Shown here: one piece after another, positions 19,118-35,259 of the stretch | Position numbering within the stretch: position 1 is the stretch's first letter | Layout of the letters: the number at the start of each line of letters is the position of its first letter | From: Chitinophaga pinensis | Lineage (GTDB): Bacteria; Bacteroidota; Bacteroidia; Bacteroidales; GCA-2748055 | Reading direction: 5' to 3' | NCBI GenBank assembly: GCA_945863035.1 | Contig: CAMAZH010000001.1 | Location: 42 to 64,041, forward strand | DNA: 64,000 nt | Notes under the pieces: generated by a model | Database searches by the model: none | Told to the model about the DNA's origin: nothing | Seen by the model: only the letters and a program-made list of their open reading frames with translations | Made by a program: the position numbers and the translations under genes

Positions 19118-20203
19118 ATGCAAGATTCAGCAAATAAGGTTAATAAAGATCTTTTAGAAAGATACAACAAGGAGAAGGTAACTTCTGAGGAAAGAGCAAT
19201 TGTAGAGCGATGGTTCGCCGACAATAATCTTAAGGATCAATTGTCAATATCCTCAATTAATTTATGGGAAAACATTCCTTTGGATATTGATTTACCGGAA
19301 CTTGAAGGGCACCGGATCCTGGACAGGATTCACCATCAGATAAACAGAGAACAATCCGTATTTGTCACTGAAAGCAGGAAGCGATCAGTAGTTCTCAGAT
19401 ATCTTGGCAGGGTCGCTGCAATCCTTTTATTACCGGTTCTTCTGACCACTGTTTTTTTATACTATAAGATCAATGCAATTTACAATGAAGGTGCTTATTC
19501 AGAGATCTATGCTCCGGCAGGGGCCAGCACAACTTTTCATCTTCCGGATGGCTCATCAGGCTGGCTAAATGGAGGATCTTCTATAAAATTCCCAGCTCAT
19601 TTTCATAAAAAAAACCGTTGTATTGAGCTTAGCGGGGAAGCTTATCTGAACGTAACTGAAGATCCCTGCAGGCCATTTATAGTAACTACTTCAAACATTA
19701 AAGTGAGAGTAATTGGAACCTCATTCAATATAATGGCATATGATGATGATTTGAAAACAGAGGTGACATTGGAAAGCGGAAGTGTTGAAGTTTTGAAAAA
19801 GCGAAATAAAAACACTGTGTGTATTGGGAAATTGAAACCTGATCAGGCTCTGATTTATTACCATAAATCAGATTCTTCCTATATGATCTCAGTAAAAAGT
19901 TCCGATAAAACATCATGGAAAGACGGGAAACTGGTTTTCCGGTACGATCCTTTGTGTGAAGTTATAAACAAGATTAATCGGTGGTACAATGTTGATATTA
20001 AAATTATGGATCCGGAATTGAATGATCATAAATACTATGGTACTTTCCAGAACGAAACACTGTCTGAAGTTTTAAAACTTCTTCAGTATACTGCACCGAT
20101 ACGATATAAGGATATGGGAAGACAAAAGAAGCCGGATGGTACCTATGATAAAAGGATCATTGAATTATACAGTAAAAAACAGAATAGTAAAACACATCAT
20201 TAG
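19118..20203 (+). CDS. FecR-family anti-sigma factor / transmembrane sensor
   Basis: 361 aa with one central TM segment (VAAILLLPVLLTTVFLYY). FecR block: TTFHLPDGSSGWLNGGSSIKF...GEAYLNV...PFIVTTSNIKVRVIGTSFNI. The C-terminal domain carries LSEVLKLLQYTAPIRY. Confidence 0.9.
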   Translation: MQDSANKVNKDLLERYNKEKVTSEERAIVERWFADNNLKDQLSISSINLWENIPLDIDLPELEGHRILDRIHHQINREQSVFVTESRKRSVVLRYLGRVAAILLLPVLLTTVFLYYKINAIYNEGAYSEIYAPAGASTTFHLPDGSSGWLNGGSSIKFPAHFHKKNRCIELSGEAYLNVTEDPCRPFIVTTSNIKVRVIGTSFNIMAYDDDLKTEVTLESGSVEVLKKRNKNTVCIGKLKPDQALIYYHKSDSSYMISVKSSDKTSWKDGKLVFRYDPLCEVINKINRWYNVDIKIMDPELNDHKYYGTFQNETLSEVLKLLQYTAPIRYKDMGRQKKPDGTYDKRIIELYSKKQNSKTHH

Positions 20204-20345: not shown

Positions 20346-23300
20346 ATGAAAAAATTTTCCAGGAAATCAGGAGAATATTTTACTAAAATACCCTCTTGTA
20401 AAATACTTAAACATATGAGAAATACTTTATTGTTACTACTCATAACTGTCTTTCAGACCTACGCTGAAAACTCCTATTCCCAAAGTACCTTGTTGACCCT
20501 TAATTTGAAGGAGGTGACTTTAGCAAATGCTCTTGAAAAGATAGAGAGTCAAAGTGAGTTTTACTTTTTATTCAATGCAAAACTCATAGACATTGAAAGG
20601 ATAGTATCTATTTCTGCGAACAACCAAAAAGTGGTTTCCATTCTTGACGATCTTTTTAATAATTCGAATGTGGAGTATATGGTTTATGACCGGCAGATAG
20701 TCTTATCCCCGCGGGAATATATTGCAAGTCTAAAGGCTGAATCTAAGCAGCCCATCACCATTACCGGTATCGTATCCAACGAAAACGGTGAGCCTATGGT
20801 TGGAGTTACCGTGATGATTAAAGGAACATCACAAGGAACAATTACCGATGTGACCGGCAAATTTTCTATCTCCAACGTTCCGGAGGATGCAATATTGGTA
20901 TTTTCGTTCGTGGGGATGAGGACAACGGAGTTGGTTCTTGGGGGTCAAACAAGCGTCAGTGTAACAATGTTGGAAGATATGATAGGAATTGAAGAGGTTG
21001 TGGCGATCGGGTACGGAACCCTTTCCAAAAGAAATATATCTGGTTCAATTACAAATATCACTGAAAAAGAATTTAACAAGGGTGTGACACAAACAGCTGC
21101 TGACCTATTGCAGGGAAAAGCGGCAGGTTTAACTATTACTACGGAGACTGGAGATATTACCGCACAGCAAACCATGCGCTTAAGAGGTACTTCTTCCTTA
21201 ACTGGTTCAAGTGCTCCATTTGTAGTGATTGATGGTGTTCCGGGGATGGATTTAAACTCAGTGGCACCCCAGGATATAGAATCTATTAGCATTTTAAAAG
21301 ATGCATCTTCTGTTGCAATTTACGGTTCGCGTTCCGCCAGCGGGGTAATCCTGATAACCACCAAAAAAGGCAAAAAGGGGCAGGAAAGTGTTCAATACAG
21401 TTCTTATGTGGCGGTTGATATTGCTTCAGATAAACCTGAATTGCTCTCAGCTGCTGAATGGCGTGAATATACAAAAGACCAGAACGTCTCCGGGCTTGAC
21501 CTTGGTGCTGATACCGATTGGTTTGATGAGATCATGAGAGTGGGTATTTCTCATAACCACAATCTTTCAATTACAGGAGGCATAGAAGGCGGAAGCTACC
21601 GGGCATCAATCAACTACCTTGACAGGCAGGGAATTATGAAAGATAATGAGATGGAACGTTATAACAGTATGTTCTCTTTGAACAAAAGAGTTTTAAATGA
21701 CAATTTAGATATAACCCTGACAGGAGGTTCTGTGTTAAGCAATTTTACTCCAACGAATTCTTACAATACAGTATTGGCATACAACATGTTACCTGTTTAT
21801 CCGGTAAAAAATCCGGATGGTTCATGGTTCTCTATTCAGGAATGGGAACAGGGAAACCCGGTACACAATATCGAAGAGAATAGGAACCTTAATAAAACCA
21901 GTTTATTATACGGAAATGTAAAAGCTGTGATGGAAGTCGTTCATGGACTGAACGCTGGTATTAATCTGTTTAAACAACGGAATTCGACGGATAATTCGTT
22001 TTATAATGCATCAACTACACAGGCCGGAAGACAGGTCGGAGGATATGCAAACCGGGGGAACCAGTTGTGGAATAAAGATTTGATAGAGTTAACACTTGAT
22101 TACTCGGCGGAATTTGGTCAGCACGACATAAAAATGTTAGGAGGGTATTCATATGAATATAATACCTACGAGTCAGTTAGAGCTTCAAACAGGACATTTA
22201 TTTCAGATATGTTCGAGTATAATAACCTGGGAGCAGGTGAGAACCTGTTCGCAACGGACGTAAACTCTTATAAAAATATGAGTAAGTTGATTTCCGTATT
22301 CGGGAGGTTAAACTATACCTTTCATGGAAAGTATATCCTGACTGCTACCATAAGGCGGGATGGTTCCTCAAAATTTGGAGATAACAATAAATGGGGAACT
22401 TTCCCATCCATTTCCGGGGCATGGAGGTTGTCTGATGAACCGTTGATAAAAGATATGGGGTTGTTTGATGAATTAAAAGCCCGGATTGGTTATGGTGTGG
22501 TGGGTAACCAGGATGGTATCGGACCCTATACTTCTATTGCCCTGTATGGGCTTGGTGATGAGTATTTTGACAATGGGAAATGGAGAAATACTTACAAGTA
22601 TGCACAAAATGATAACCCTGATCTAAGATGGGAACAAACAGCATCATTTAATCCGGGTATTGATTTCTCTGTACTAAATTATCGATTGAGTGGTTCCGTG
22701 GATTATTATATCAAGAACACCAGTGATTTACTGTATGTGTATAATGTGCCTGTTCCTCCATACCTATATCCCACAATGCTGGCAAATGTTGGGGATATTT
22801 CGAATAAAGGGATAGAAGTTGTATTAAGCGGAACGATAATCAACAGCTCTGACTTTAAATGGACTGCCACTGTAAATTTTGCGCACAACAAAAATATGAT
22901 CGACAGATTATCCAATGATGTCTATCAAACTGATTACATTAAAACAGGTTTTATCGATTTAAGGGGATCTGGGTATCTGACAAGTCATATTGTTGAAGAA
23001 GGCCAGGAAGTTGGCACATTTTATAATCTTAGATGTCTTGGTCTGGATGAAAATGGAAAGTTTATTATAGAAGACACCCATGAAGATGGAGTAATCAATA
23101 ATCTCGATTATACATACATTGGTAATGCAATGCCTCGGTTTACTTATGGTATACTGAATACATTGTCCTATAAAAAGATTGATTTTTCATTTTTCATACG
23201 AGGCTTATATGGAAATGATGTCCTAAATAGTCCCAGGGTACAATACAGCAACCCAAAATGGCTTCCCGGAGGAAATGTATTGCGGGAAGTACTGACAAAT

Positions 23301-23579
23301 GGAATAACCGATGATCCGTTATTCTCTTCATACTTTATTGAAGATGGTTCATTCCTACGAATGGATAATGTGAACTTGGCCTACAATTTTGGTTCACTGA
23401 GCAGGACCGGAATTAAGGGCCTTAAAGTTTACGCTACGGCACAAAATCTTTTTATAATTACAAAGTTTACAGGCCCTGATCCCGAAGTGCGGATGAGTGG
23501 ATTGAATCCTGGCGAACTTGACAAATACTTTGTGCCTAAGCCAAGAACTTTTTCAATTGGTATTGATGTGAAATTTTAA
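20346..23579 (+). CDS. susC: SusC/RagA-family TonB-linked outer-membrane transporter with an N-terminal STN signalling domain
   Basis: 1077 aa. STN block: LNLKEVTLANALEKIESQSEFYFLFNAKLIDIERIVSISANNQKVVSILDDLF. CarboxypepD_reg block: ITGIVSNENGEPMVGVTVMIKGTSQGTITDVTGKFSI. The plug contains SILKDASSVAIYGSRSASGVILITTKKG. The terminal residue is F. It is immediately followed by susD. Confidence 0.9.
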   Translation: MKKFSRKSGEYFTKIPSCKILKHMRNTLLLLLITVFQTYAENSYSQSTLLTLNLKEVTLANALEKIESQSEFYFLFNAKLIDIERIVSISANNQKVVSILDDLFNNSNVEYMVYDRQIVLSPREYIASLKAESKQPITITGIVSNENGEPMVGVTVMIKGTSQGTITDVTGKFSISNVPEDAILVFSFVGMRTTELVLGGQTSVSVTMLEDMIGIEEVVAIGYGTLSKRNISGSITNITEKEFNKGVTQTAADLLQGKAAGLTITTETGDITAQQTMRLRGTSSLTGSSAPFVVIDGVPGMDLNSVAPQDIESISILKDASSVAIYGSRSASGVILITTKKGKKGQESVQYSSYVAVDIASDKPELLSAAEWREYTKDQNVSGLDLGADTDWFDEIMRVGISHNHNLSITGGIEGGSYRASINYLDRQGIMKDNEMERYNSMFSLNKRVLNDNLDITLTGGSVLSNFTPTNSYNTVLAYNMLPVYPVKNPDGSWFSIQEWEQGNPVHNIEENRNLNKTSLLYGNVKAVMEVVHGLNAGINLFKQRNSTDNSFYNASTTQAGRQVGGYANRGNQLWNKDLIELTLDYSAEFGQHDIKMLGGYSYEYNTYESVRASNRTFISDMFEYNNLGAGENLFATDVNSYKNMSKLISVFGRLNYTFHGKYILTATIRRDGSSKFGDNNKWGTFPSISGAWRLSDEPLIKDMGLFDELKARIGYGVVGNQDGIGPYTSIALYGLGDEYFDNGKWRNTYKYAQNDNPDLRWEQTASFNPGIDFSVLNYRLSGSVDYYIKNTSDLLYVYNVPVPPYLYPTMLANVGDISNKGIEVVLSGTIINSSDFKWTATVNFAHNKNMIDRLSNDVYQTDYIKTGFIDLRGSGYLTSHIVEEGQEVGTFYNLRCLGLDENGKFIIEDTHEDGVINNLDYTYIGNAMPRFTYGILNTLSYKKIDFSFFIRGLYGNDVLNSPRVQYSNPKWLPGGNVLREVLTNGITDDPLFSSYFIEDGSFLRMDNVNLAYNFGSLSRTGIKGLKVYATAQNLFIITKFTGPDPEVRMSGLNPGELDKYFVPKPRTFSIGIDVKF

Positions 23580-23597: not shown

Positions 23598-25148
23598 ATG
23601 AATAAATATATAAATGCGCTGCTTATTGTTTTAATAATTGCAGCTTTTTCCAATTCATGTACAGATCTTGAAGAGACTGTTTACAGTGAGGTTGCAGTTT
23701 CCGAATTTGGTTCTGCTCCGGAACAAATCGATGCATTGGTAGCATCAATATACAGCACTTTAAAGTTCCATGTTCTTAGTTGGGATTCATACACTTGCCG
23801 TGATGAACTTGCCGGAGATATGATGGCAATTCCTGGATTTAAGGGAGGTGACTGGGGTGAGCCAATGTTTAGTGAAGCCATGAAGCATACTTGGGACGCA
23901 AGCAGCACCGGTTATGATGCTGCATATAATTACCCAACTAGCAGCATAGCATTGTGTAACCAGATTTATTACATGATTGAAACAAGCCCGGGAATATCCG
24001 AAGCAAACAAAGTGAGGTTTCTTTCTGAAATCAGAGGAGTACGGGCCTTCTGGTACTATATTTTGTGCGATCAATTTGGGAATGTTCCTATTGTTACTGA
24101 TTTCCTTGATCGGTCTCAACCTGAGACTAACTCCCGCAGCGAGGTTTATGATTTCATTATTAAAGAACTTATTGAGATAAAAGATAGTCTTAGATCTGAT
24201 GTTCCTGGATTGCAAAGTTACGGAAGGTTTACAAAGGGTGCAGCCTATGCTCTGTTGGCCAAAATGTACCTGAATGCCGGGGTATACAAACCGGAAGGCG
24301 GCTCTAAATGGGAAGAATGTATTGAAGCCTGCAACGGGGTAATGGCATTACCCTATGTACTTGAAGGAGTCTGGAAAAAGAATTTTACTCCTGACAATCA
24401 TTTATCTGAAGAGGCGATCCTTTCAGCTGCGTTTAAAGCTGGTGGCAGCGGAATTGAGAATATTATAGCGTTAAATACTCTTCACTATTTAGATCCAATT
24501 GCACTGGGGCTGAATATCAGCCCATGGAATGGAATTGCTGCAAACCCTGACTATGTTAAATCCTTCGACACACTTGATATAAGATATGAAGGTTCTTTCC
24601 TCGTTGGACCAATGATTGATCCGGCGACCGGTGAAGTATTGGTAACCTCTCACGGCCGCCCCCTCATTCACACGGTTGAGATGGTTCTTAATGAGGTAGA
24701 TGGAGATGGTTGGGGATGGATAAACCAGGAAGAAGGTGCACGCGTTGCTAAATGGGATTATGAACCAGGGCTTAGTACCTCCATGGAAAATGATATCCAT
24801 ATTTTCAGGCTTGCGGATATTTATCTGACCAAGGCTGAAGCATTGCTCAGAAGCGGGGGAAGTATCGCAGTTGCCACAGATCTTGTTAATGCTATTCGCG
24901 CCAGGGCATTTCCGGGTAAACCCGAAAAGTTATACAGTTCTGTTACACTGGATGATGTTTACAACGAACGCAGGTTAGAATTTGCATGGGAAGGGTTCAC
25001 CAGACAGGATATGATCCGGTTTGGGACGTTCCTTTTACCTCGGACACCTTTTAAACCCTACCAAAGCGATTCAAAATACTTGTTATATCCGATACCCCAA
25101 TCAGCAATTGATGCAAATAATAAATTGAAACAAAATCAGGGATATTAA
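23598..25148 (+). CDS. susD: SusD/RagB-family nutrient-binding outer-membrane lipoprotein
   Basis: 516 aa. Lipobox: IIAAFSNSC. SusD blocks: AYALLAKMYLNAG, FRLADIYLTKAEALL, ERRLEFAWEGFTRQDMIRFG. The start lies 18 nt after the susC stop. Confidence 0.9.
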   Translation: MNKYINALLIVLIIAAFSNSCTDLEETVYSEVAVSEFGSAPEQIDALVASIYSTLKFHVLSWDSYTCRDELAGDMMAIPGFKGGDWGEPMFSEAMKHTWDASSTGYDAAYNYPTSSIALCNQIYYMIETSPGISEANKVRFLSEIRGVRAFWYYILCDQFGNVPIVTDFLDRSQPETNSRSEVYDFIIKELIEIKDSLRSDVPGLQSYGRFTKGAAYALLAKMYLNAGVYKPEGGSKWEECIEACNGVMALPYVLEGVWKKNFTPDNHLSEEAILSAAFKAGGSGIENIIALNTLHYLDPIALGLNISPWNGIAANPDYVKSFDTLDIRYEGSFLVGPMIDPATGEVLVTSHGRPLIHTVEMVLNEVDGDGWGWINQEEGARVAKWDYEPGLSTSMENDIHIFRLADIYLTKAEALLRSGGSIAVATDLVNAIRARAFPGKPEKLYSSVTLDDVYNERRLEFAWEGFTRQDMIRFGTFLLPRTPFKPYQSDSKYLLYPIPQSAIDANNKLKQNQGY

Positions 25149-25168
25149 AGCTGTTGAAAACTTAAAAC

Positions 25169-25444: not shown

Positions 25445-26614
25445 ATGAATAGAAAAAAATTTTTATCAAATCTTGGAATGATGGGGACCGCTGCTATGAT
25501 TGCTCCGTCAATGATGGCTTCATCTCCATCTGTTAAATTAATCAATACATCCGGTAAGAAAATCAGAGTTGGGGTAATCGGATGTGGCAGTGTATCCGCA
25601 TATTATCTAAAGCACCTATCAAAATGTCCGTATGCCGAAATAGTAAGCCTTTGCGACATTATCCCGGAGAGGGCACAAAACCGGGCAAGGGAATATAAGG
25701 TAAACAGTTGGTATCCGCATATTGATAAAATGCTTGCGGGTGTTGACTTTGATTTGTTTGTAAACCTCACGGATATGCAGGAGCATTATCGTTTGAACGT
25801 TATTGCTCTTAATTCAGGTAAGCATGTATGGAGTGAAAAACCAATGGCCAGTACTTACAATGAGGGCTCTGAGTTGATAAAACTCGCTTCACAAAAAGGA
25901 GTCAGGATCTGGGGAGCACCCGTTGTTGTTAATAGTCCTCAGTTTGCTTTTATCGCAAAACAGATCAATGAGGGCAATTTTGGCCGGATTTCTGCTGCGC
26001 ATGGTTGCTATGGTCACCTTGGGCCATCGTGGTCCTCTTTTTTTTATGAAAAACTTGGCGGCAGCATTCCCGACTTAGCTGTTTATAATATCACAAGCCT
26101 TACCGGATTGTTGGGGCCTGCCGTTTCTGTTTTGGCAATGACAAATATTATCTCCCCAACTCGTGAGATCGATAACAAAGGAACCGTTAAAGTTACTGAA
26201 GAAGATAATTCTCATATCCTTCTGGAACACCAGAGTGGGGCTATTTCGCATATTCAGAGCGGGTTTAACTATACGATGGCTCATAGTTATGATAGTGAGG
26301 AAATCTCTACTATTTCCATTATCGGCACAAAAGCCAGGATGGATATGATTGGGTATGATTGGGACCCCTTAGCTGTTGATGTGGCAACTCCCGCTATACA
26401 AAAGATGGAGCGTATGGCTACAGACCCGGGTACCTATGTCTGGGAGGAGGGGGCATCTGTAATCTGCGAATTCCTGGCTACAGGAAAGGAACCGCTATTC
26501 AGTGCCGGCCACGCATTGCATGCAGTAGAGATTATGGAAGCCTCAAGGAAATCCCAGGAGACAGGGAAACGTATCTGGCTGAAATCTGAATTTGTCTGGC
26601 CAGTAGTTACATAG
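25445..26614 (+). CDS. Exported Gfo/Idh/MocA-family NAD(P)-dependent oxidoreductase (tandem copy 1)
   Basis: 389 aa. The N-terminal signal MNRKKFLSNLGMMGTAAMIAPSMMA is TAT-like but has RK in place of RR. Rossmann block: KIRVGVIGCGSVS. Also present: GKHVWSEKPMA. Confidence 0.85.
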   Translation: MNRKKFLSNLGMMGTAAMIAPSMMASSPSVKLINTSGKKIRVGVIGCGSVSAYYLKHLSKCPYAEIVSLCDIIPERAQNRAREYKVNSWYPHIDKMLAGVDFDLFVNLTDMQEHYRLNVIALNSGKHVWSEKPMASTYNEGSELIKLASQKGVRIWGAPVVVNSPQFAFIAKQINEGNFGRISAAHGCYGHLGPSWSSFFYEKLGGSIPDLAVYNITSLTGLLGPAVSVLAMTNIISPTREIDNKGTVKVTEEDNSHILLEHQSGAISHIQSGFNYTMAHSYDSEEISTISIIGTKARMDMIGYDWDPLAVDVATPAIQKMERMATDPGTYVWEEGASVICEFLATGKEPLFSAGHALHAVEIMEASRKSQETGKRIWLKSEFVWPVVT

Positions 26615-26719
26615 TGTATGAAATATGCAATCAGTGGTTATGGATAAAGTAAAATGTGAAATAAAATACCACATGAACATCCAGTTTAAATTGTTTAATA
26701 AAATTCAAAGACTAATAAA

Positions 26720-27898
26720 ATGACAAATATTAACCGAAAGAAATTCCTGAAAAGAATTGGAGCATTAGGTACTGCAGCAGCCATAGCACCGTCATTATTT
26801 TCTATTAAATCGTCTGCATCAGTTCATACACCCATTAACCGCAAAATTAAAGTTGGTGTTATTGGCTGCGGTAGCGTTGCCAGAAAGTACTTGCCGCATC
26901 TTACAGGTAGTCCTTATGCTGAAATTGTGAGTCTTTGTGATATTATTCCAGAGAGAGCAAAAGAACGAGCTAGCGAATTCAACATAAAAAACTGGTATCC
27001 TCATATCGATAAAATGCTGGCAGGGGTTGATTTTGATTTGTTCGTGAATCTCACGAATATGCAGGAACATGGTCGTTTAAACCGCTTAGCCATTAATGCT
27101 GGCAAACATGTTTGGAGTGAAAAACCAATGGCCAATACTTATAATGAAGGCCTGGATTTGTTAAATCTTGCCAAGAGCAAGGGTTTAAGGATATGGGGTG
27201 CTCCGGCAGTTGTAAACAGTCCACAGTTTGCATTTATGGCACAGCAGATAAATCAAGGTAATTTAGGATTGATTTCGGCAGGACATGGTTCATATGGGCA
27301 TCAGGGACCCACATGGTCTTCATTTTTTTATGAAAAACTTGGGGGAAGCATGCCTGATCTGGGTGTATATAATATTGCCACACTTACCGGACTTCTTGGA
27401 CCGGCAGTATCGGTAACAGCAATACTTAATATTATTTCTCCTACCCGCAATATCGACGATAAAGGCACAATTAAAGTTGAAGAAGAAGATAATGCTCATA
27501 TATTGATGGAGCACAAAAGTGGAGCAATATCACATATTCAGTGCGGTTTTAATTATCTGGACCCGCATGGATATGAGGGTGATGAAATTCCTACTTTGTC
27601 TGTTATTGGTTCAAGGGGTAAGATGGAAATGATTGGATATGACTGGGCGCCCTATGCAGTTGATATGGCAACTTCAGCCGATCAAAATATGCGGCGATTG
27701 GCAACAGATCGAGGAACTTATAAGTGGGAGGAAGGGGCATCGGTAATTTGTGAATATCTGTCAACGGGAAAAGAGCCTCTGATCAATGTGGAGCATACAT
27801 TGCATGTTCTTGAAATTATTGAGGCAGCCCGAAAATCCCAGGAAACACGCAAGCGTATTGAATTAATGTCGGTTTTTAAATGGCCGGTTGTTAGTTAA
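26720..27898 (+). CDS. Exported Gfo/Idh/MocA-family oxidoreductase (tandem copy 2, close paralog of copy 1)
   Basis: 392 aa. N-terminus: NRKKFLKRIGALGTAAAIAPSLFS. It is collinear with copy 1 over its full length, roughly 70-75 percent identical by eye. Both share, for example, YAEIVSLCDIIPERA, WYPHIDKMLAGVDFDLFVNLT and WSSFFYEKLGGS. Confidence 0.85.
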   Translation: MTNINRKKFLKRIGALGTAAAIAPSLFSIKSSASVHTPINRKIKVGVIGCGSVARKYLPHLTGSPYAEIVSLCDIIPERAKERASEFNIKNWYPHIDKMLAGVDFDLFVNLTNMQEHGRLNRLAINAGKHVWSEKPMANTYNEGLDLLNLAKSKGLRIWGAPAVVNSPQFAFMAQQINQGNLGLISAGHGSYGHQGPTWSSFFYEKLGGSMPDLGVYNIATLTGLLGPAVSVTAILNIISPTRNIDDKGTIKVEEEDNAHILMEHKSGAISHIQCGFNYLDPHGYEGDEIPTLSVIGSRGKMEMIGYDWAPYAVDMATSADQNMRRLATDRGTYKWEEGASVICEYLSTGKEPLINVEHTLHVLEIIEAARKSQETRKRIELMSVFKWPVVS

Positions 27899-27929
27899 TT
27901 TATAGAAGTAGGGAAGGGCAAATGGATTT

Positions 27930-29249
27930 TTGAAACAAATCCATTGCTTTTCCTTCTTTTTTATGAAGACAAAACAGGATGACTGCGAACAATATGAAAA
28001 GTGGCTTGATACAATGATTGTTAATGTTTTTGAAGAGAAAGAAATTGAGGCTATGACTTGCAGAGCAAAGGTGCGTTCCTTGCTTTTATCGAAGAATAAT
28101 GCTTTACGGGCAGCATTTTTATTTGGATTTGCCAGCCTTTCCTCCTGGATACCTATGTTTAACTTATGGCTTGGAAACGAGGGCTTAAGCGGTTTGCAAA
28201 TCGGGATAGTTGCTGCAATTCCCTGGCTGCTGATGCTGTTTATTCAGCCATTCTGGGGAATTGTAGCCGACCGGTATGGAAAGCTTTTTTGTTTGCGGCT
28301 GAGTCTTATTTGTGCATCTGTACTATTTATCATTTATCCTTTTGCTTCGGTAGGAATTGGCTTAATTATCTGTATGACAATTTTATTGTCTGTATTTAAC
28401 ACGCCGGTACTCCCTTTGCTCGATAGTATTGCACTTGACCAGGTTGAAAGCAAACAAATTAATTCTTACAGCACAATCCGGTTTTGGGGCGCAATCGGTT
28501 ATGCAACAGGCGCGGCCGTTACCGGATGGTTAATACCATTCTTTGGAGTGAAAGTAGCTTTTTTTACAAGCTCCGGATTTTTAGCGCTCAGCTATTTATC
28601 ATCCATTAAAATTAATATGCCAGCACTCACATCCAAAGGACTTGATGTGGAATTCAGGTACCTGGGAGAGATAATTTCAAATAAGATACTGTTGGTTTTC
28701 CTGGCAATTGTTGTTGTGGTTTCTATCGGACAATCTGCAATTACATTTTTCCTTAGTCTGTATATGAGTCAGATAAAGGCCTCCCCCGAAATAACAGGCT
28801 TTGCCATAGGAATGGAAGGAATAAGTGAATTGCCTTTTTACTTTATTGCTGCCTGGCTGCTTCGGAAAATGGCTCCAGGGAAGATTGTTTTCATAGCAAT
28901 TATGGCCACCTCTATCAGGCTATTCCTTTATTCAGTGAATAACACCCCGAATTTTGTAATTTTGATAGAATCAATGAATGGCCTTACATGGACGCTCCTA
29001 TGGGTTTCTTCGGTTGAATTTGTGAATAGTCTTATTCCGGCAAAATGGAGAACTACCGGCCAGTCGATGCTTTGGGCGGCATATTTTGGAGCGGGTTCAG
29101 TAACCGGAAACATTTTATGCGGATGGATGTACCAGCAAATGCCAATGAAACAGGTTTATGCAGCAACAAGCCTGATGATATTTTTAACTGGAATTGCAGC
29201 TTTTTTTATTTTCTTTAAAAGAAAAAAGAACAATACTATTGCACGATGA
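27930..29249 (+). CDS. MFS-type transporter (12-TM, LacY/MFS_1_like-type)
   Basis: 439 aa and highly hydrophobic, with the GIVADRYGK loop motif. The track start is a TTG. The real start may be a downstream ATG (MKTKQDD or MTCRAK). The stop overlaps the next gene's ATG (ATGA at 29246-29249). Confidence 0.8.
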   Translation: MKQIHCFSFFFMKTKQDDCEQYEKWLDTMIVNVFEEKEIEAMTCRAKVRSLLLSKNNALRAAFLFGFASLSSWIPMFNLWLGNEGLSGLQIGIVAAIPWLLMLFIQPFWGIVADRYGKLFCLRLSLICASVLFIIYPFASVGIGLIICMTILLSVFNTPVLPLLDSIALDQVESKQINSYSTIRFWGAIGYATGAAVTGWLIPFFGVKVAFFTSSGFLALSYLSSIKINMPALTSKGLDVEFRYLGEIISNKILLVFLAIVVVVSIGQSAITFFLSLYMSQIKASPEITGFAIGMEGISELPFYFIAAWLLRKMAPGKIVFIAIMATSIRLFLYSVNNTPNFVILIESMNGLTWTLLWVSSVEFVNSLIPAKWRTTGQSMLWAAYFGAGSVTGNILCGWMYQQMPMKQVYAATSLMIFLTGIAAFFIFFKRKKNNTIAR

Positions 29250-30709
29250 TAAAACTCCTGTCAGATGGCACTGTAGAACAGATGATTTCAACCGCCTGCA
29301 AACTTGTTGTTGAAAAGGGAATGATGACCCGCAACTCAAAATTGCTTGAGTCTGCCGAACAAAATGAATCTCTTCAGGTAAAAGGTAACCGTATTTTTTG
29401 TTCCACTGAAGCAGTTGAATCATGCCTGAACCATCTGAAACAGAACCGCATTTCAAGAGCTGATTTCTATGAAAATCAGCATGGATGGCAGGATATGTTA
29501 ATGGATAACGCGGCTCAAAACGATCTGCTTATAAAATTGACCGATTTGCCCTACCAGTTTTGCGATCATCGTGCTCAGCAAATAATCCCGTTAAACCGCC
29601 AACATGTTATTGAAGGGACAAAATTGATGCATGTTTTGTCGGTACAGCAAGACATAAAGGGCTACACTTGCGGTGTGCCACAAGACACTGCAAATCCCCT
29701 TAAACCGATTGAGCAATATCTGATCGGCTTTTGTTACAACCAGAATGGCGGAGGCACAATTCAATCGGTAGCAGCCGAAGTTGAAATGGATTTTACTGAA
29801 ATGAAATGTATTGCAGAAGACCGGGAAAATCTTCACGAAAGAAGCCTGATGCTTTTCTCACCAAGCCCTATGATTCTCGATGCTGATGAGCTTTATCTAT
29901 GCTTCAAACCCGGGATCACCATCAACAGTTTTATGGTAGGCTCAATGCCTATGATGGGGATGACCGGACCCATTGACCCGATTGGATCTTACACTCTCGG
30001 AATTGCTGAAGTGATAGGTGCGGCAAGCATTTTACATGCTCTTTTCCCAATGGCAAAAGCTTATGTATATCCGCATCCCCAGGCTATGGATCTACGAAGC
30101 GGACAAATGGCTTTTGGTACTGTGGAGCACGCACGACTGGAGATGCTGAAGTTGCAGGTAATGAAAACACTCGGTCTGCAGTATTATAATCTGAAGGACA
30201 TTATGACCTCGGCACAAATGCCCGGAAGCATGGCACAGGGCGACAAGGCTTTGGGATTTTTCACGGGACTTATGGCCGGATACAAAGCATTTAACCTGAT
30301 GCCTTTATCAACAGATCAGGTCTGGTCGCCTGTTCAGGCACTTTTGGATATTGATGCATTGAAAAATGCCTGGGCAGCAACCCGTCCGGTCAAAGCACCG
30401 GATTTTAAAAATACATGGGAAACAATTTGTGAGGTTATTGATAATGATTGCCTTTTTGCCGAAATGAATGATACCTTGATGAATATGGCAGAGAACTATG
30501 ATATGAATTCTTTGCATACTCGTTTCTTTTCTTCAGAAGTTTGGAGTTCCGCCGGAAGGCCTCATGAAATTAGTGCTGTTGAAGATAAATGCAACGAATT
30601 GATTACTTCGTGGAACTTTCGCCCTGACCAGGATAAATTGGAGAAGATTTTAAATATTTATCATAAATTATGTAAAAAGTATAACACAGATCCTATTCAG
30701 ATGGATTGA
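29246..30709 (+). CDS. MttB-superfamily-like (trimethylamine/quaternary-amine methyltransferase fold) protein, non-pyrrolysine; function unknown
   Basis: 487 aa with no signal peptide. The N-terminus LSDGTVEQMISTACKLVVEKGMMTRNSKLLESAEQNESLQVKGNRIFCSTEAVESCLN follows the family-typical pattern 'L-x-E-x-I-x-A-x-x-[LIV]-L-E-x-G-[LIV]...A-x-x-L-x-x-A-G-x-x-V-x-G-x-R-[LIV]-x-F'. The length also fits the ~490-aa family. There is no in-frame TAG. The assignment comes from pattern memory only. Confidence 0.5.
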   Translation: MIKLLSDGTVEQMISTACKLVVEKGMMTRNSKLLESAEQNESLQVKGNRIFCSTEAVESCLNHLKQNRISRADFYENQHGWQDMLMDNAAQNDLLIKLTDLPYQFCDHRAQQIIPLNRQHVIEGTKLMHVLSVQQDIKGYTCGVPQDTANPLKPIEQYLIGFCYNQNGGGTIQSVAAEVEMDFTEMKCIAEDRENLHERSLMLFSPSPMILDADELYLCFKPGITINSFMVGSMPMMGMTGPIDPIGSYTLGIAEVIGAASILHALFPMAKAYVYPHPQAMDLRSGQMAFGTVEHARLEMLKLQVMKTLGLQYYNLKDIMTSAQMPGSMAQGDKALGFFTGLMAGYKAFNLMPLSTDQVWSPVQALLDIDALKNAWAATRPVKAPDFKNTWETICEVIDNDCLFAEMNDTLMNMAENYDMNSLHTRFFSSEVWSSAGRPHEISAVEDKCNELITSWNFRPDQDKLEKILNIYHKLCKKYNTDPIQMD

Positions 30710-30731
30710 ATAAATAATTGCAATAAATAAT

Positions 30732-31565
30732 ATGAGTTGTTATATCGGTATTGATCTTGGAGGCACCACAATAAAAGGTGGTTGCATTGAATCGGGCAGG
30801 CTGGCCGGAAGGGAGGTATTTCCGGTAAATCCGGCTGGATCGAAGGAGAGTATCTTTAGCGATATATGCGAATTAATCGATCGCCTTTGGAATGAACATG
30901 TGGAAGGCATTGGTTTTGCAGTACCCGCGGTGATTGATTTCGCGAGCGGTACGATTTATGGTCTTTCCAATATCCCACAGTTTAACGGTTTTGCTATTCA
31001 GAAAGCTCTTGAAGATCGGTTTAAAGTTCCAGTCAGGATTCAAAATGATGCAAACTGTTTTGTTCTGGGGGAAATGTATTTTGGAGCAGCCGGAGGGTTC
31101 AGAAATATAGTCGGACTTATTACCGGAACTGGAGTTGGAGCAGGAATAGTTATTGGCGGCAAAATCCATAACGGCGTACATAACGGCGCAGGAGAATTTG
31201 GCATGATACCTTATAAAGAATCATGCTTTGAAGCCTATTGCAGCGGTCAGTTCTTTTCAGCATTTTATCAGGTAACAGGCGAAGAAATGGCCAAAAGGGC
31301 TGGTGAAGGTGATACTCAGGCTTTATTGGCCTTTTACAATTACGGATTACATCTGGGAGAATTAATTAATTTGATTTGCTATGCTTTGGATCCGGAAATA
31401 ATTATCATAGGTGGTTCGGTAAGTAAGTCATTTGAGTTGTATAAATCCGGATTAACAGAATCTCTGAAAGGATTTTACTTTGATCACAGGGAAAAAGTCA
31501 AAATTTCGCCATCCACTGTGAAAGATATTTCAATTTATGGTGCTGCAGGCTTATTCTTCAATTAA
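30732..31565 (+). CDS. ROK-family sugar kinase (variant lacking the zinc site)
   Basis: 277 aa. Motifs: IGIDLGGTTIKGG, QNDANCFVLGEMYFGAAGG, TGTGVGAGIVIGGKIHNGVHNGAGEFGM. The usual ExGH plus CxCGxxGC zinc motif is replaced by EFGMIPYKESCFEAYCSG. Confidence 0.85.
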   Translation: MSCYIGIDLGGTTIKGGCIESGRLAGREVFPVNPAGSKESIFSDICELIDRLWNEHVEGIGFAVPAVIDFASGTIYGLSNIPQFNGFAIQKALEDRFKVPVRIQNDANCFVLGEMYFGAAGGFRNIVGLITGTGVGAGIVIGGKIHNGVHNGAGEFGMIPYKESCFEAYCSGQFFSAFYQVTGEEMAKRAGEGDTQALLAFYNYGLHLGELINLICYALDPEIIIIGGSVSKSFELYKSGLTESLKGFYFDHREKVKISPSTVKDISIYGAAGLFFN

Positions 31566-31693
31566 GATGGAAAGTCAATTGATTACTAAAACTTGTGGAA
31601 ATAATAGATATTTTTAGTTTCATGAATAAAAGCATTAGAATGAATTTTTTGTAGACTCTGTTGTAGCTGAACTAACTTAAAATAAAAACTAAG

Positions 31694-32743
31694 ATGACGA
31701 AATTTTTAGAAGATATACTCAAACAACCAGAACAACTCCAGCAATCATTGGAATATACCTTTTCCGACGGTTGGAATGAGATTGAAAAAGCAAACAGGCT
31801 TATCAGGTCAGCCAAAACAATTTTTATTTCCGGAATTGGAGCCAGCTGGAACGCCGGATTGGCTATCCAGGCTGCGTTTAATGAGCTTGGTATTCCATCC
31901 ATTCTCTGCGATTCATCAGAATTTCTGCATTTCACAATCATACCAAAAAGTTCAGTCGTTCTTTTTTTATCCAGAAGCGGGAAAAGCGTTGAAATTGTTA
32001 ATTCCATATCAAAATGTAAAGCCTCCGGTTCAAAAATAATCTCAATAACCAATGACGCAAATAGCACATTGGCGAAGCAATCTGATGTCTGTCTTTCAAC
32101 TCATGTTGATTTTGACAATAGCATTTCTGTAAATACCTACACCTCAATAATCCTTACTGGTCAGTTGCTGGTATCCGGTTTTGCAGAAACATTCTCAAAA
32201 ACTGCACTATCTCATTCCTTAAAACAAAGCTTTAAACAGGTGCAACTGAGGATGCTTCAGTGGCAGGAAGAAATTATCAATTCAAAATGGCTGGACAAAG
32301 AATCCACAACTTACTTTTTAGCCAGGGGAAGCAGCCTGGCTTCTGCCTTTGAAAGTATGCTGATCTGGCAGGAAGGGGCAAAGCAACCCGCTTCAGCCAT
32401 GACAACCGGAGCTTTCCGACACGGTCCCCAGGAAATATTGCTTAACCGGCTTAGCATTGGATGTTGGATCGATAATCAAATTGCAAGGGAATATGATTTT
32501 AAATTACTTAACGATCTGCATAGCCAGGGTATTTCACTACTGACAATAGGTTTCAATTTACCACTTGATCTGAAAGGAATGAAAATCGAAATACCGGAGA
32601 TAATCCATACGTTTCAGCCAGTGATTAATATTATTCCCATGCAGCTGGCAACTGATCATTTTGCTGAAATTAAAGGGGAAGACTGCGATAGTTTCAGGTA
32701 TTGCAATTTTGTGGTGGAACATGAGGGCGGTTTATATACCTAA
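31694..32743 (+). CDS. Double-SIS-domain sugar-phosphate isomerase/deaminase/deglycase-like protein (AgaS/FrlB/GlmS-isomerase type)
   Basis: 349 aa. First SIS domain: IFISGIGASWNAGLAIQAAF...VVLFLSRSGKSVEIVNSISKCKASGSKIISITNDANSTLAKQSD. Second SIS domain: TTYFLARGSSLASAFESMLIWQEGAK. Confidence 0.8.
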   Translation: MTKFLEDILKQPEQLQQSLEYTFSDGWNEIEKANRLIRSAKTIFISGIGASWNAGLAIQAAFNELGIPSILCDSSEFLHFTIIPKSSVVLFLSRSGKSVEIVNSISKCKASGSKIISITNDANSTLAKQSDVCLSTHVDFDNSISVNTYTSIILTGQLLVSGFAETFSKTALSHSLKQSFKQVQLRMLQWQEEIINSKWLDKESTTYFLARGSSLASAFESMLIWQEGAKQPASAMTTGAFRHGPQEILLNRLSIGCWIDNQIAREYDFKLLNDLHSQGISLLTIGFNLPLDLKGMKIEIPEIIHTFQPVINIIPMQLATDHFAEIKGEDCDSFRYCNFVVEHEGGLYT

Positions 32744-32949
32744 GCCATTAGTTGTTGCGAAAAAAACCGGAAAAGAGGTAAATAGTTAAAGTGGTTTTAA
32801 ATTCTAATTGGTATAAAAATGAAACTTCCATGCCACAATGTTTAATTCAGATGGAGGAGGCACAAAAGGACATGATAATTACGCATAAATCAGGAAGCTA
32901 GGCGCATGGAAGTTCCATGAGTCCAACTAATTAAATAAACTATTTTCGA

Positions 32950-33690
32950 ATGAAAAAGGTAAATACTGTTTTTTTTGTTTTCGGAATGCTTTTAATGAGT
33001 TTCAGTGCTCAAACTGAGGCACAGAGACCTGTTTCAAATACCGGAATCAAAAATATGCAAGCTAACGAAAACAGTTCTCTGAAGGCTGATAGCAGTCAGT
33101 GGAAGCAATTATTCAATGGGAAAGATCTGACTGGCTGGAAACAGGCAGGACCGGGATCACATTATGTGGAGGAGGGTTTAATTAAATCTCATGGAGGGAT
33201 GGGATTGCTTTATTGGGAAGGTGAAAAATTTGGTAATTGCCGGATTCGGGTAGTTTTCCGGATGCGTGATACCCTTGATAACTCAGGCGTATTTATCAGG
33301 GTTCCCATTGAACCTGTTGAAGCGTGGATGCCGATACACTATGGTTATGAGGTTCAGATTGATAATCACCCTGAAATATGGGACGAAGACGAGTATCATT
33401 ATACAGGTACCTTGTATTCGCTGACAAAACCAATGGCTATGGTTGGAAAACCCGGTCCGGAGTGGAATACTTTTGAAATTATCCTTCAGGGATCAAGAAC
33501 AGTTGTTTACGTCAACGGCACAAAAGTTACTGATTATAATGAGGAGGATGAGGTTCCTGCCCGTGTGTTTGATTGGGAACCAATACGCGGACCTCGTCCG
33601 GAATATGGATTCATTGGTATACAAAACCATGATGAAGAGAATGTTGTTTTCTTTAAGGAGATTTCTGTAAAACCCCTGTTATTGCAATAA
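32950..33690 (+). CDS. Secreted DUF1080-family protein (3-keto-disaccharide hydrolase / concanavalin-like fold)
   Basis: 246 aa with a signal peptide. Motifs: WKQLFNGKDLTGWKQAG, DNSGVFIRVP, YEVQIDN, EWNTFEIILQG, GFIGIQNHDEENVVFFKEISVKPL. Confidence 0.8.
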   Translation: MKKVNTVFFVFGMLLMSFSAQTEAQRPVSNTGIKNMQANENSSLKADSSQWKQLFNGKDLTGWKQAGPGSHYVEEGLIKSHGGMGLLYWEGEKFGNCRIRVVFRMRDTLDNSGVFIRVPIEPVEAWMPIHYGYEVQIDNHPEIWDEDEYHYTGTLYSLTKPMAMVGKPGPEWNTFEIILQGSRTVVYVNGTKVTDYNEEDEVPARVFDWEPIRGPRPEYGFIGIQNHDEENVVFFKEISVKPLLLQ

Positions 33691-33732: not shown

Positions 33733-35259
33733 ATGAATAAAGAATTAAAAAAAACAAAGAGTTCGAGCGGGCTTTCGAGAAGAAATTTTGTAAAAATGAC
33801 TGCTTCCGGAGCAGCAGCTTTTACTATTCTTCCCAGCTATGTTGTAAGTGGCCTTGGTCATGTATTGCCCAGCGATAAGCTCTACATTGCAGCAGTTGGT
33901 TGCGGTGGAGAAGGAGCATCCGATATTCATACTTTAATGAAAACGCCAAAAAAGAATGCCGTGATTTCATGCCTTTGCGATGTTGATGACCGTATGGCAC
34001 TGCCCCGGAGGAAAGAATACCCGAATGCCCCGTTTTACCACGATTGGCGTGAGATGTTCGATAAGGAAAGTAAAAACTTCGATGCTGTTACCGTTGCAAC
34101 TCCAGATCACAATCATGCTATTATTGGCTTTAGTGCTATGCAATTGAAAAAACATCTTTACCTTCAAAAGCCGTTATCCCATGATATATATGAAGCCAGG
34201 ATATTAACACAGGCAGCCGAAAAATACAAAGTGGTAACCCAAATGGGAGATCAGGGAGCATCATGCGAAGGAATGCAGACATTGCGTGAATGGCTGGAAG
34301 CTGGTCTGCTTGGAGACGTCGAAAAAGTTTATTGCTGGACCGATCGTCCCGTATGGCCACAGGGGATTCCATGGCCAAAACAGACTGCTGCTGTGCCAAA
34401 AGAGTTGAATTGGGATTTGTGGTTGGGTACAGCTCCTGAAACCGGGTATATTGAAAACCTTGTACCATTTAATTGGAGGGGCTGGTGGCAGTTTGGAACC
34501 GGAGCGCTTGGCGATATGGGGTGTCACATTATGGGCCCTCCATTTAAGTTGCTTGGATTGGGCTACCCAACTGAAGTATCGGGAAGTGCAAGTACAGTTT
34601 ACGATGGCATTTTTTCAGAAGCACAATACCCGGAAAGTGGTCCGGTTTCGAGCTCTCTGAAATTTAAGTATACACTAAAAAATGGTAAAAACCTGGACAT
34701 GTACTGGATGGATGGGGGTATTACACCTGATCGTCCCACTGAATTAGCCGGTGAAGCAAACATGAATGAAATTCTTGGCGACTTTACCGGTTTGAATGAC
34801 TACGAGGGCAGCACATTATTTGTTGGAACAAAAGGAAAAGCTGCCTGTGGATGGGGTGGTCGTAGTCCAGTATTATTACCACTTTCCCGGAATAAAGAGA
34901 TTAATGTTCCTAAAAAATATCCACGTGTAACAGGAGATATGGACGGCCATTACTGGCAATGGATCGATGCCTGTATTGCAGGGTATGGAAACGCTGAAGT
35001 TTCATCGCCGTTTGTAGGATACGCCGGACCACTTACCGAAACGGTTCTGATGGGCAACTTAATCCTGAGAAGTTTTAATATCCGTGAAAAAATCAAGCGG
35101 GTTGATCCGGTTTATGGCGAAATGGATGCATATTCTTTCCCGGGCCGTTATATAAACTATAAATGGGATGGTGAAAACATGAGAATTACAAATTTCGAAC
35201 AAGCCAATCAGTTTATTAGGAGAGAGTATAGAAAAGGTTGGGGCGAATTGAAATTATAA
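33733..35259 (+). CDS. TAT-exported Gfo/Idh/MocA-family oxidoreductase (glycoside dehydrogenase-like)
   Basis: 508 aa. Canonical twin-arginine signal: SRRNFVKMTASGAAAFTIL. Rossmann block: LYIAAVGCGGEGASD. Also present: TPDHNHA and KHLYLQKPL. Confidence 0.85.
   Translation: MNKELKKTKSSSGLSRRNFVKMTASGAAAFTILPSYVVSGLGHVLPSDKLYIAAVGCGGEGASDIHTLMKTPKKNAVISCLCDVDDRMALPRRKEYPNAPFYHDWREMFDKESKNFDAVTVATPDHNHAIIGFSAMQLKKHLYLQKPLSHDIYEARILTQAAEKYKVVTQMGDQGASCEGMQTLREWLEAGLLGDVEKVYCWTDRPVWPQGIPWPKQTAAVPKELNWDLWLGTAPETGYIENLVPFNWRGWWQFGTGALGDMGCHIMGPPFKLLGLGYPTEVSGSASTVYDGIFSEAQYPESGPVSSSLKFKYTLKNGKNLDMYWMDGGITPDRPTELAGEANMNEILGDFTGLNDYEGSTLFVGTKGKAACGWGGRSPVLLPLSRNKEINVPKKYPRVTGDMDGHYWQWIDACIAGYGNAEVSSPFVGYAGPLTETVLMGNLILRSFNIREKIKRVDPVYGEMDAYSFPGRYINYKWDGENMRITNFEQANQFIRREYRKGWGELKL

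Follow-up and report, generated by a model that had tools for sequence, protein, structure and literature searches.

A divergent MttB-superfamily protein in a Bacteroidales glycan utilisation cassette: candidate first methyltransferase of a corrinoid system for methylated amino sugars

Background

What does a relative of the trimethylamine methyltransferase MttB do in the middle of a gene cluster for glycan utilisation that holds no corrinoid protein? The question is raised by a 64-kb stretch of contig CAMAZH010000001.1 (assembly GCA_945863035.1, named Chitinophaga pinensis and placed in the Bacteroidales by its GTDB lineage; 145.5-kb contig k141_256685 of ENA assembly ERZ27280308), here called the window, whose left edge lies 41 bases from the contig end. 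It concerns the open reading frame (ORF) at 29246..30709 (+), which encodes a protein of 487 amino acids (aa). Enzymes of the MttB superfamily demethylate methylamines and osmolytes in methanogens, acetogens and marine bacteria. A preliminary description, made from the sequence, had placed the protein in this superfamily and offered two readings, namely a barrel repurposed for a sugar derivative or a methyl-handling step in the catabolism of a methylated or amino sugar. Our analysis favours the second. With a probability of roughly 0.6, the protein is the substrate-specific first methyltransferase (MT1) in a three-component corrinoid system whose substrate is a methylated amino sugar, probably methylated on the nitrogen.

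Results and discussion

Family and fold

The ORF starts with ATG and its frame is open throughout, hence it contains no in-frame TAG. Bases 29246-29249 read ATGA, so that the ATG overlaps the TGA of the upstream ORF for a permease of the major facilitator superfamily (MFS) at 27930..29249. These features had been given in the preliminary description and can be read directly in the sequence; its ROK kinase and double-SIS gene downstream and its SusC/SusD pair upstream were likewise recovered by Pfam and in the translations.

The Pfam model PF06253 matches the protein with E = 2.5e-14 and 52.6 bits (cut-off 25), aligning residues 3-456 with profile positions 32-475 of 500, and all 64 relatives of the protein carry the same domain. 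A pairwise search against the sequences of the PDB gave weak partial matches (E ~2e-4), and family profiles were needed: the profile of the family scored 65 bits against MtgB, and a wider profile matched MtgB (227 bits) and MttB (217 bits) over the full length. An AlphaFold2 (AF2) model was obtained with a pLDDT of 90.8 and a pTM of 0.88. Its ten best Foldseek matches in the PDB were MttB (7xcl), MtgB (9yce, 2qne) and the Sinorhizobium homologue 4yyc, with template-modelling (TM) scores of 0.74-0.78, E values of 1e-19 to 1e-21 and an identity of 14-16%; the next matches were to MtmB, with a TM score of 0.44. Since the profile matches, the model and its structural neighbours agree, the assignment of the MttB fold is secure. 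The superfamily proposed at the outset is thereby upheld (TM ~0.75 to MttB itself), and no other fold came close.

Judged by sequence and predicted structure, the protein is a genuine, very divergent, non-pyrrolysine member of the superfamily. It is no pyrrolysine-containing MttB, as its frame is open without TAG and the position of Pyl334 aligns with M320. On the alignments it also stands outside the MtgB, MtpB, MtcB, MtyB and MthB groups, from which it is set apart by the test of a conserved arginine considered below.

Orthologous operons with a corrinoid set

In total 81 loci were collected, among which 19 dereplicated lineages have an orthologue with at least 59% identity to the window protein. 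One of these lineages, represented by the loci L020, L039, L040, L042 and L044 from human-gut assemblies (59% identity), belongs to Parabacteroides distasonis: the source records are named Parabacteroides distasonis or Parabacteroides sp. (WP_287565129.1, MFR1749759.1), and the neighbouring gene of the uroporphyrinogen decarboxylase type (URO-D) is found on a 5.13-Mb contig. The gene order of this lineage is sigma factor, corrinoid protein, Met_synt_B12-like protein, URO-D, PfkB, SIS, MFS, MttB-like gene, FecR, SusC, SusD, GFO-type oxidoreductase and glycoside hydrolase (GH) family 127. In L020 the gaps from the corrinoid protein through to the MttB-like gene measure 0-15 nt. The corrinoid protein carries PF02607 and PF02310, its best NCBIfam match being the betaine-specific MtgC (214 bits), and the URO-D protein falls into the MtaA/CmuA family (140 bits). 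A second lineage, L080, shows the same arrangement minus PfkB, with a URO-D protein 76% identical to that of the P. distasonis lineage. Both lineages nest within the clade of the window protein in a neighbour-joining tree, and both have all 33 residues that are invariant in the family.

A related arrangement is seen in L077 (GCA_031551395.1, JAVBNR010000029.1; positions 4654-9688), where SusD, GH2, an SSF transporter, URO-D (358 aa), corrinoid protein (211 aa), URO-D (335 aa) and Met_synt_B12 (227 aa) follow each other and no MttB-like gene is present. From its gene content, this locus looks like a sugar-associated demethylase system with an MT1 of the URO-D type. As the second URO-D (358 aa) replaces the MttB-like gene beside the same set, the MttB-like protein occupies the MT1 slot.

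No such set is encoded near the gene in the window. Across the 64 kb, Pfam was run on every ORF of at least 150 aa and found neither a corrinoid protein nor a methyltransferase of the URO-D type nor a MetH-activation domain; tblastn of the window with the corrinoid, URO-D and activation-domain proteins of the orthologous loci gave E > 0.2 throughout; and six-frame searches of the window with hidden Markov models (HMMs) revealed no partner of a corrinoid system. In the 8 kb past the right end of the window the gene calls list no corrinoid partner, only further genes of the type IX secretion system (T9SS), carbohydrate-binding module (CBM) 6 and GH43 kinds. The absence noted in the preliminary description therefore stands, and extends over window plus 8 kb; it is among the nested orthologues, in the P. 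distasonis lineage and L080, that the partner lies in the same operon as the gene.

Distant homologues from Chloroflexi (22-27% identity), which form arrays of tandem paralogues in L025 (10942-13055), L073 (1250-3491), L026 and L075, have a corrinoid protein directly downstream in each case and served as positive control for the detection of partners by the six-frame HMM search. The array of L025 adjoins an ABC transporter.

Partners encoded away from the cassette are plausible, because the 335-aa type of URO-D is widespread and also occurs with Met_synt_B12 alone. In detail, this type has more than 7,500 homologues, many of them in Bacteroidales at 60-67% identity, and in L079 (6625-9702; a protein of this locus is named Phocaeicola coprophilus by a source) a URO-D (338 aa) and a Met_synt_B12 protein (236 aa) come directly after serine hydroxymethyltransferase, and no corrinoid protein adjoins them.

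The gene cluster of the window

The MttB-like gene belongs to a cluster of twelve genes, all on the (+) strand, that spans 18191-35259 and is bounded on the right by a convergent gene at 35405. The neighbours were assigned by Pfam, with further evidence as given (TAT, twin-arginine translocation; GFO, oxidoreductase of the GFO/IDH/MocA family).

18191..18775 (+), extracytoplasmic function (ECF) sigma factor, start of the regulatory unit (Pfam Sigma70_r2 and r4_2; the position is likewise filled in orthologous loci)
19118..20203 (+), FecR-type anti-sigma factor (Pfam FecR and FecR_C)
20346..23579 (+), SusC-like TonB-dependent transporter, 1077 aa (translation; clusters with SusC of the orthologous loci; Pfam Plug and TonB_dep_Rec in the L080 orthologue)
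23598..25148 (+), SusD-like lipoprotein, 516 aa (translation; Pfam SusD-like_3 and SusD_RagB in the L080 orthologue)
25445..26614 (+), periplasmic GFO with TAT-type N-terminus, probable glycoside 3-dehydrogenase (Pfam)
26720..27898 (+), second GFO with TAT-type N-terminus, tandem paralogue (Pfam)
27930..29249 (+), LacY/MFS_1_like permease (Pfam PF12832, 192 bits)
29246..30709 (+), MttB-superfamily TIM-barrel protein, proposed MT1 (PF06253, AF2 model, Foldseek, orthologue operons)
30732..31565 (+), ROK sugar kinase, nearest to NagK and glucokinases (Pfam ROK, NCBIfam, best PDB match)
31694..32743 (+), double-SIS protein similar to the GlmS isomerase, proposed amino-sugar-6-phosphate deaminase/isomerase of the AgaS / NagB-II type (NCBIfam, PDB)
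32950..33690 (+), secreted DUF1080 protein, probable 3-keto-glycoside 1,2-lyase / hydratase (PF06439, 145 bits; PDB relatives 8tda and 8rr2)
33733..35259 (+), GFO with TAT signal, 508 aa, of the 8tdf/8tdh type (glycoside 3-dehydrogenase; phmmer against the PDB)

The two tandem GFOs (25445-26614 and 26720-27898) are 69% identical to each other. Read from the TTG at 27930, the permease has 439 aa; its true start probably lies downstream, since the orthologues have 393-415 aa and the European Nucleotide Archive (ENA) call has 428 aa.

The rest of the window encodes T9SS-sorted CBM6/CBM35/PA14 proteins, GH78 (twice), GH106, GH29 and GH43, along with a two-component regulator of the hybrid type and another pair of GFO and DUF1080. 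At 56345-59702 (-) this pair, a GFO (447 aa, C2-type) and a DUF1080 protein (339 aa), is found together with a subsequent 317-aa ORF without Pfam match. The large CBM6/CBM35/PA14 proteins at 4342-6129, 14193-17075, 35405-47221 and 53671-56313, and those in L081, nearly all end in a Por_Secre_tail (T9SS), and in several of the CBM6/CBM35/PA14 proteins of the region no catalytic domain was recognised by Pfam. At 50123-53605 (-) a GH78 alpha-L-rhamnosidase of 1160 aa has a DUF1080 / 3-keto-disaccharide-hydrolase domain inserted at about aa 291-450 and carries a T9SS sorting tail; by its domain composition, this is a Koshland glycosidase fused to a domain of the oxidative cleavage pathway.

Conservation of the cassette

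The clade of the MttB-like protein is rare, with 64 clusters (at 90% identity) among 5.8 billion proteins; besides Parabacteroides, the sources that carry a name are Bacteroidales and Prolixibacteraceae assembled from metagenomes. When 1.84 billion representatives were searched exhaustively with a profile, about 14 close ones were obtained, and a long tail followed, with 140 at E <= 1e-30 and 2,029 at E <= 1e-3.

The preliminary description had pointed to a cassette of MFS, MttB-like, kinase and SIS genes, and the genes of this cassette recur, to differing extents, among the 19 lineages. The following genes were counted near the MttB-like gene:

MFS permease, immediately upstream: 15 of 19 lineages
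Double-SIS or NagB-fold protein: 16 of 19 lineages
Sugar kinase: 11 of 19 lineages (ROK 9, PfkB 1, Khk 1)
Stc2/GbcA-type Rieske oxygenase: 3 of 19 lineages
Corrinoid protein: 2 of 19 lineages

The conserved core thus comprises the MFS permease, the MttB-like protein and an enzyme of the galactosamine/glucosamine-6-phosphate (GalN/GlcN-6-P) deaminase type, either a double SIS or an AgaI equivalog, and is usually joined by a kinase (ROK, PfkB or Khk) and by periplasmic enzymes for 3-keto glycosides. In all 17 distinct loci measured, the stop of the permease gene and the start of the MttB-like gene overlap by 4-20 nt or are separated by at most 4 nt. TAT-type GFOs, DUF1080, SusC/D and the sigma/anti-sigma pair recur in the orthologous loci. 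The order MFS, MttB-like, deaminase is kept from 100% down to about 39% identity; in the clade at about 40% identity ROK, MFS, AgaI-like, GH4 and MttB-like genes are found together, and still remoter members adjoin GH4 (with an SSF transporter and a GFO), GH31 or GH29.

The locus L036 (1-9695) has a variant of the cassette: a partial URO-D gene at the contig edge and a 154-aa ORF in the reverse orientation precede SDR, ROK, SIS_2, FAD_oxidored (PF12831), a protein of the phosphotriesterase family, MFS, MttB-like and AgaI-like genes, which suggests further oxidative or amine-processing steps.

Amino-sugar enzymes and Rieske oxygenases

The SIS protein of the window is matched by the NCBIfam models GlmS (107 bits) and NagB-II (54 bits), both under the equivalog cut-offs, and its nearest relatives in the PDB are isomerase domains of GlmS. 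In relatives of the locus the SIS gene is replaced by a NagB-fold protein, which passes the AgaI model NF007291 (GalN-6-P isomerase) with 308 and 296 bits at a cut-off of 271. SIS-type and NagB-type enzymes are unrelated solutions to the deamination/isomerisation of amino-sugar 6-phosphates. As the two alternate, the cassette should end in this reaction; we consider the alternation good evidence for a terminal deaminase step, whose catalysis is predicted from family membership. The preliminary description had named a deglycase or a deaminase for the SIS protein. The deaminase fits better, and the FrlB/FrlD-type deglycation of Amadori products, considered for the pair of SIS and PfkB, was ranked below deamination on account of the same alternation with an AgaI equivalog. 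A MurQ-type etherase was also considered for the SIS protein and rejected, no MurQ model having matched. The ROK kinase of the window has its best PDB match in an N-acetylglucosamine kinase (101 bits). The cassette contains neither a deacetylase of the NagA/AgaA type nor a cytoplasmic enzyme for 3-keto sugars.

In three lineages (L013, L014, L045) a Rieske oxygenase is inserted in the cassette, accompanied in L013 and L014 by a NirB-like reductase. Its best NCBIfam match is GbcA, a glycine betaine monooxygenase subunit, with 342 bits, other Rieske families reaching about 100 bits. Among solved structures it comes closest to 3n0q, the stachydrine N-demethylase Stc2 (272 bits) and the carnitine monooxygenase CntA (155 bits), and no O-demethylase was among the Rieske matches listed at E <= 1e-10. 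Two unrelated families of quaternary-amine N-demethylation hence converge on a cassette with an amino-sugar deaminase at its end, which we take as an independent pointer to N-methyl chemistry.

Periplasmic enzymes

The 508-aa GFO was matched by phmmer to 8tdf (E = 1.4e-94) and 8tdh (E = 6e-91), and the 8td entries presumably stem from the study of 3-keto glycosides in gut Bacteroidales. For the 389-aa and 392-aa GFOs, the nearest relatives of known structure are C-glycoside 3-oxidases of the DgpA type (66-70 bits for 26720..27898); these relatives also led us to reject a GH109 identity for the two proteins. DUF1080 proteins have been described as 3-keto-glycoside 1,2-lyases/hydratases which, together with GFO-type glycoside 3-dehydrogenases, constitute a broad-specificity non-Koshland route (bioRxiv 10.1101/2024.03.25.586180). 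The window thus possesses the pair for oxidative 3-keto glycoside cleavage, a GFO of the 3-dehydrogenase type and DUF1080, and these periplasmic enzymes probably free a sugar that is poorly handled by ordinary glycosidases.

Proposed pathway

The fold, the family, the synteny and the partner genes of orthologues are shown by the data above; the methyl transfer, the action of partners in trans, the substrate and the sequence of reactions are inferred from them. In the resulting pathway, a glycan or glycoside would be taken up by SusC/D under the control of the sigma/anti-sigma pair, and the TAT-exported glycoside 3-dehydrogenases together with the DUF1080 lyase would release a methylated sugar in the periplasm, to be imported by the translationally coupled MFS permease. 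The MttB-like protein would then transfer a single methyl group onto a corrinoid protein in its Co(I) state, which would be unloaded by an MtaA/CmuA-type methyltransferase and repaired by a MetH-activation-like protein. In Parabacteroides these three partners are encoded in the same operon; in the lineage of the window, whose locus has none of them, they would act in trans. The ROK kinase would phosphorylate the sugar, before or after demethylation, and the double-SIS (AgaS / NagB-II-like) enzyme would deaminate and isomerise the product to a ketose 6-phosphate.

As substrate we favour a 2-amino-hexose that is N-methylated and possibly quaternary. A quaternary nitrogen is incompatible with the enamine/imine chemistry of deamination, so that removal of one methyl group would be enough to render such a sugar usable. 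If the methyl groups are on the nitrogen, demethylation must precede deamination; the order of kinase, deaminase and methyl step envisaged in the preliminary description is therefore unsupported. A kinase acting before demethylation would have a precedent in the MthK/MthB phosphocholine pathway.

In its most specific form, which we put forward tentatively and with distinctly less confidence than the MT1 assignment, the proposal is that Bacteroidota, including gut strains of P. distasonis, possess a pathway, dependent on B12 and embedded in a polysaccharide utilisation locus (PUL), for a hexosamine with N-methylation (possibly quaternary N,N,N-trimethyl or N,N-dimethyl), in which demethylation of the MttB type lets a deaminase of the AgaS/AgaI type act.

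Points against the proposal and the architecture of the pocket

A number of observations weigh against demethylation of an amino sugar by this protein, beginning with the pocket, whose residues were read from alignments (HMMER, MAFFT) and from the strand ends of the secondary-structure listing. In MtgB glycine betaine is bound by Y97, R312, H348 and F356. Of these, R312 holds the acidic moiety of the substrate and is reported to be shared by all characterised non-pyrrolysine members, whose substrates are all acidic quaternary amines (PMC13080624). All four contacts are changed in the window protein, which thus lacks the betaine-binding residues of MtgB. In detail, Y97 corresponds to L101 (MAFFT) or to the neighbouring D100 (HMMER), position 100 being acidic throughout the clade; R312 corresponds to N315 in both alignments; H348 is N350 and F356 is D357. 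The loss of the R312 equivalent matters because of its conservation in all characterised members with acidic substrates; in the wider alignment, which has 59 sequences, no more than 4 have arginine in this column. The NCBIfam equivalog for MttB, TIGR02369 (trimeth_pyl), is reached with no more than 35 bits at a cut-off of 525, and the protein attains no NCBIfam model of a named MttB-family enzyme.

Gene content adds to these points. In 17 of the 19 orthologous lineages, that of the window included, no corrinoid protein is encoded within about 10 kb, whereas the distant canonical-type homologues in the loci examined have one directly downstream. Rfam at its gathering threshold detected no cobalamin riboswitch, nor any other RNA family, in the window, L039, L080, L077 and L014. 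With regard to the glycan, the carbohydrate-active enzymes around the cassette, which comprise GH78 (twice), GH106, GH29 and GH43 in the window and GH127, a GH140-like apiosidase, GH28, RHGA-like proteins and GH2 in relatives, look pectic or similar to those for rhamnogalacturonan II (RG-II), judging by their families, and the known methyl groups of pectic and RG-II-like glycans are O-linked. Finally, hexosamines with N-methyl or trimethyl groups are not known to us from any abundant natural glycan.

Compared with MtgB, the alignments indicate that the substrate pocket has been rebuilt. The family has 33 invariant positions of its own, among them R118, E156-Q157-Y158, a GSMPxMGxxGP loop, P276-H277, S361, Q364, D368, T410, Y418 and R426, and D357 is nearly invariant. 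Most of the invariant residues lie just after predicted beta strands, the usual active-site face of a TIM barrel, and S361 and D368 correspond to a serine and an aspartate at chain positions 358 and 365 of 9yce_A. The acidic D100 and D357, at the sites of the cation-pi pair of MtgB, would fit a cationic ligand without carboxylate, and R118 and R426, invariant specifically in this clade, could bind phosphate. The wider alignment of 59 sequences reaches down to 17% identity and includes representatives from the exhaustive profile search, and 55 of its members have an aspartate at the position of MtgB F356 (D357 in the window); this set may represent a large uncharacterised branch of the superfamily that holds its substrate differently.

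Alternative explanations

The alternative that survives best, unlikely as we consider it, is a repurposed barrel: most lineages, that of the window included, would have lost methyl transfer, and the protein would act on the imported sugar independently of corrinoids. It might hydrate or isomerise a 3-keto sugar or keto-glycal supplied by the periplasmic GFO/DUF1080 enzymes or process it with coupling to a reduction, or else remove an N-acyl group in the slot that belongs to NagA/AgaA in classical amino-sugar operons. The many lineages without a corrinoid protein nearby would be accounted for, as would the remoter homologues that adjoin GH4, GH31 and GH29 without one and a cassette devoid of a NagA/AgaA-type deacetylase and of a cytoplasmic 3-keto-sugar enzyme; the known substrate residues are all replaced, and polar or acidic residues suited to a sugar (D100, N315, N350, D357, E156-Q157-Y158, H277, Q279) are conserved. 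Such a barrel is at odds, however, with the nested orthologues, which share all invariant residues and are co-operonic with a corrinoid protein, a second methyltransferase and an activation protein, and with the URO-D-type MT1 that fills the equivalent slot in L077. The Stc2/GbcA-type N-demethylase of three lineages is hard to explain without a methylated substrate, and no activity other than methyl transfer was found in the literature on the MttB superfamily. Of the two readings offered in the preliminary description, it is thus the methyl-handling step that is favoured, owing to the corrinoid sets in cis and the Rieske oxygenases, and the repurposed barrel is the less likely.

Alternatively, the corrinoid mechanism could be the same and the methyl group O-linked, the substrate being an O-methyl sugar from a pectic, RG-II-like or algal glycan, such as 2-O-methyl-fucose, 2-O-methyl-xylose or an O-methyl hexose. 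Such an enzyme would do anaerobically what the P450 demethylase does for 6-O-methyl-galactose and would agree with the enzymes of rhamnogalacturonan type that flank the cassette in the window and in its relatives. In addition, L077 provides a corrinoid system linked to a PUL with a sugar transporter in Bacteroidales. Methanol and ether activation uses a Zn-thiolate site, yet the family alignment contains no invariant cysteine and therefore no such site. The Rieske partner belongs to the N-demethylase clade for quaternary amines and not to the O-demethylases, the characterised non-pyrrolysine MttB members in the literature found all use quaternary amines, and the downstream enzymes are of the amino-sugar type (AgaI equivalog, GlmS-like SIS, NagK-like ROK) instead of enzymes for fucose or xylose. 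Oxidative P450 demethylation of a methoxy sugar is known from aerobic marine bacteria (PMC6292453, PMC10033563), and no anaerobic route was found in the literature. On balance we regard an O-linked methyl group as improbable.

An incidental linkage, in which an ordinary demethylase for betaine, carnitine or a choline-type osmolyte would use a corrinoid system elsewhere, would be compatible with the superfamily membership and with partners in trans (in Ruegeria pomeroyi the cobalamin-binding component MtgC and the methyltransferase component MtgD take part in the demethylation of glycine betaine as well as in the synthesis of methionine; PMC12478193), but is very improbable in view of the synteny of MFS, MttB-like and deaminase genes, which holds from 100% to about 39% identity and includes the overlap of stop and start codons, the asparagine in place of the carboxylate/phosphate-binding R312 of all characterised members, and the failure to reach any NCBIfam model for a named enzyme.

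Significance

The preliminary description had considered such a step new for a PUL, which agrees with our literature searches: they covered MttB, corrinoid proteins, methylated sugars and PULs as well as the Bacteroidales and Parabacteroides, and brought up no description of such a system. An MttB clade wired into PULs would extend corrinoid methyl transfer to carbohydrate catabolism and would give a function to a cassette that is conserved from Bacteroidales of wetland and sediment to Parabacteroides of the gut. If this is correct, glycan foraging would be partly cobamide-dependent, establishing a new link between cobamide availability and foraging, and on the most specific reading the superfamily would gain a new class of substrate, a cationic amino sugar without an arginine-bound acidic group. 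It would also be a possible answer to the question of how methylated sugars are handled anaerobically, for which the literature found gave only the oxygen-dependent P450 route. As cultured P. distasonis possesses a complete operon (WP_287565129.1 and its neighbours), the hypothesis is directly testable.

Comparison with known systems

Among the solved members of the superfamily, MttB from Methanosarcina barkeri (7XCL, 7XCN) shares the fold (TM 0.75, E = 1.9e-21), whereas the window protein has no TAG and has M320 at the position of Pyl334. MtgB from Desulfitobacterium hafniense (2QNE, 9YCE) is, like the window protein, a non-pyrrolysine TIM barrel with the N- and C-terminal extensions of the MttB type (TM 0.74-0.78). 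The identity is only 14-15%, however, the betaine contacts are replaced in the window protein, and MtgB is encoded in an osmolyte/acetogenesis cluster and not in a glycan utilisation locus without adjacent corrinoid protein.

MthK and MthB act on phosphocholine in Eubacterium limosum, the kinase making the substrate acidic (PMC12155760). The MthB/MthK/MthC/MthA system resembles the proposed one in combining an enzyme of the MttB superfamily with a kinase and in its three components (MT1, corrinoid protein and the second methyltransferase, MT2). It differs in that reactivation is carried out there by RamQ and ATP, as opposed to URO-D (MtaA/CmuA) and a MetH-activation-like domain in the Parabacteroides operons, and in that the substrate is phosphocholine, whereas the kinases here are sugar kinases (ROK, PfkB, Khk).

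The P450 demethylase for 6-O-methyl-D-galactose from marine Bacteroidota (PMC6292453) likewise demethylates within polysaccharide utilisation; unlike the MttB-like protein it is oxygen-dependent, has another fold and acts on an O-methyl group. With the 3-keto glycoside pathway of gut Bacteroidales (bioRxiv 10.1101/2024.03.25.586180) the locus shares the GFO and DUF1080 neighbours. Methyltransferase, kinase and deaminase are not attached to that pathway, whereas here it appears to feed a cytoplasmic route of the amino-sugar type. This route has the permease, the kinase and the SIS- or NagB-type deaminase in common with the AgaS/AgaI and NagK/NagB pathways, and where those have the NagA/AgaA deacetylase, the cassette has the MttB-like gene.

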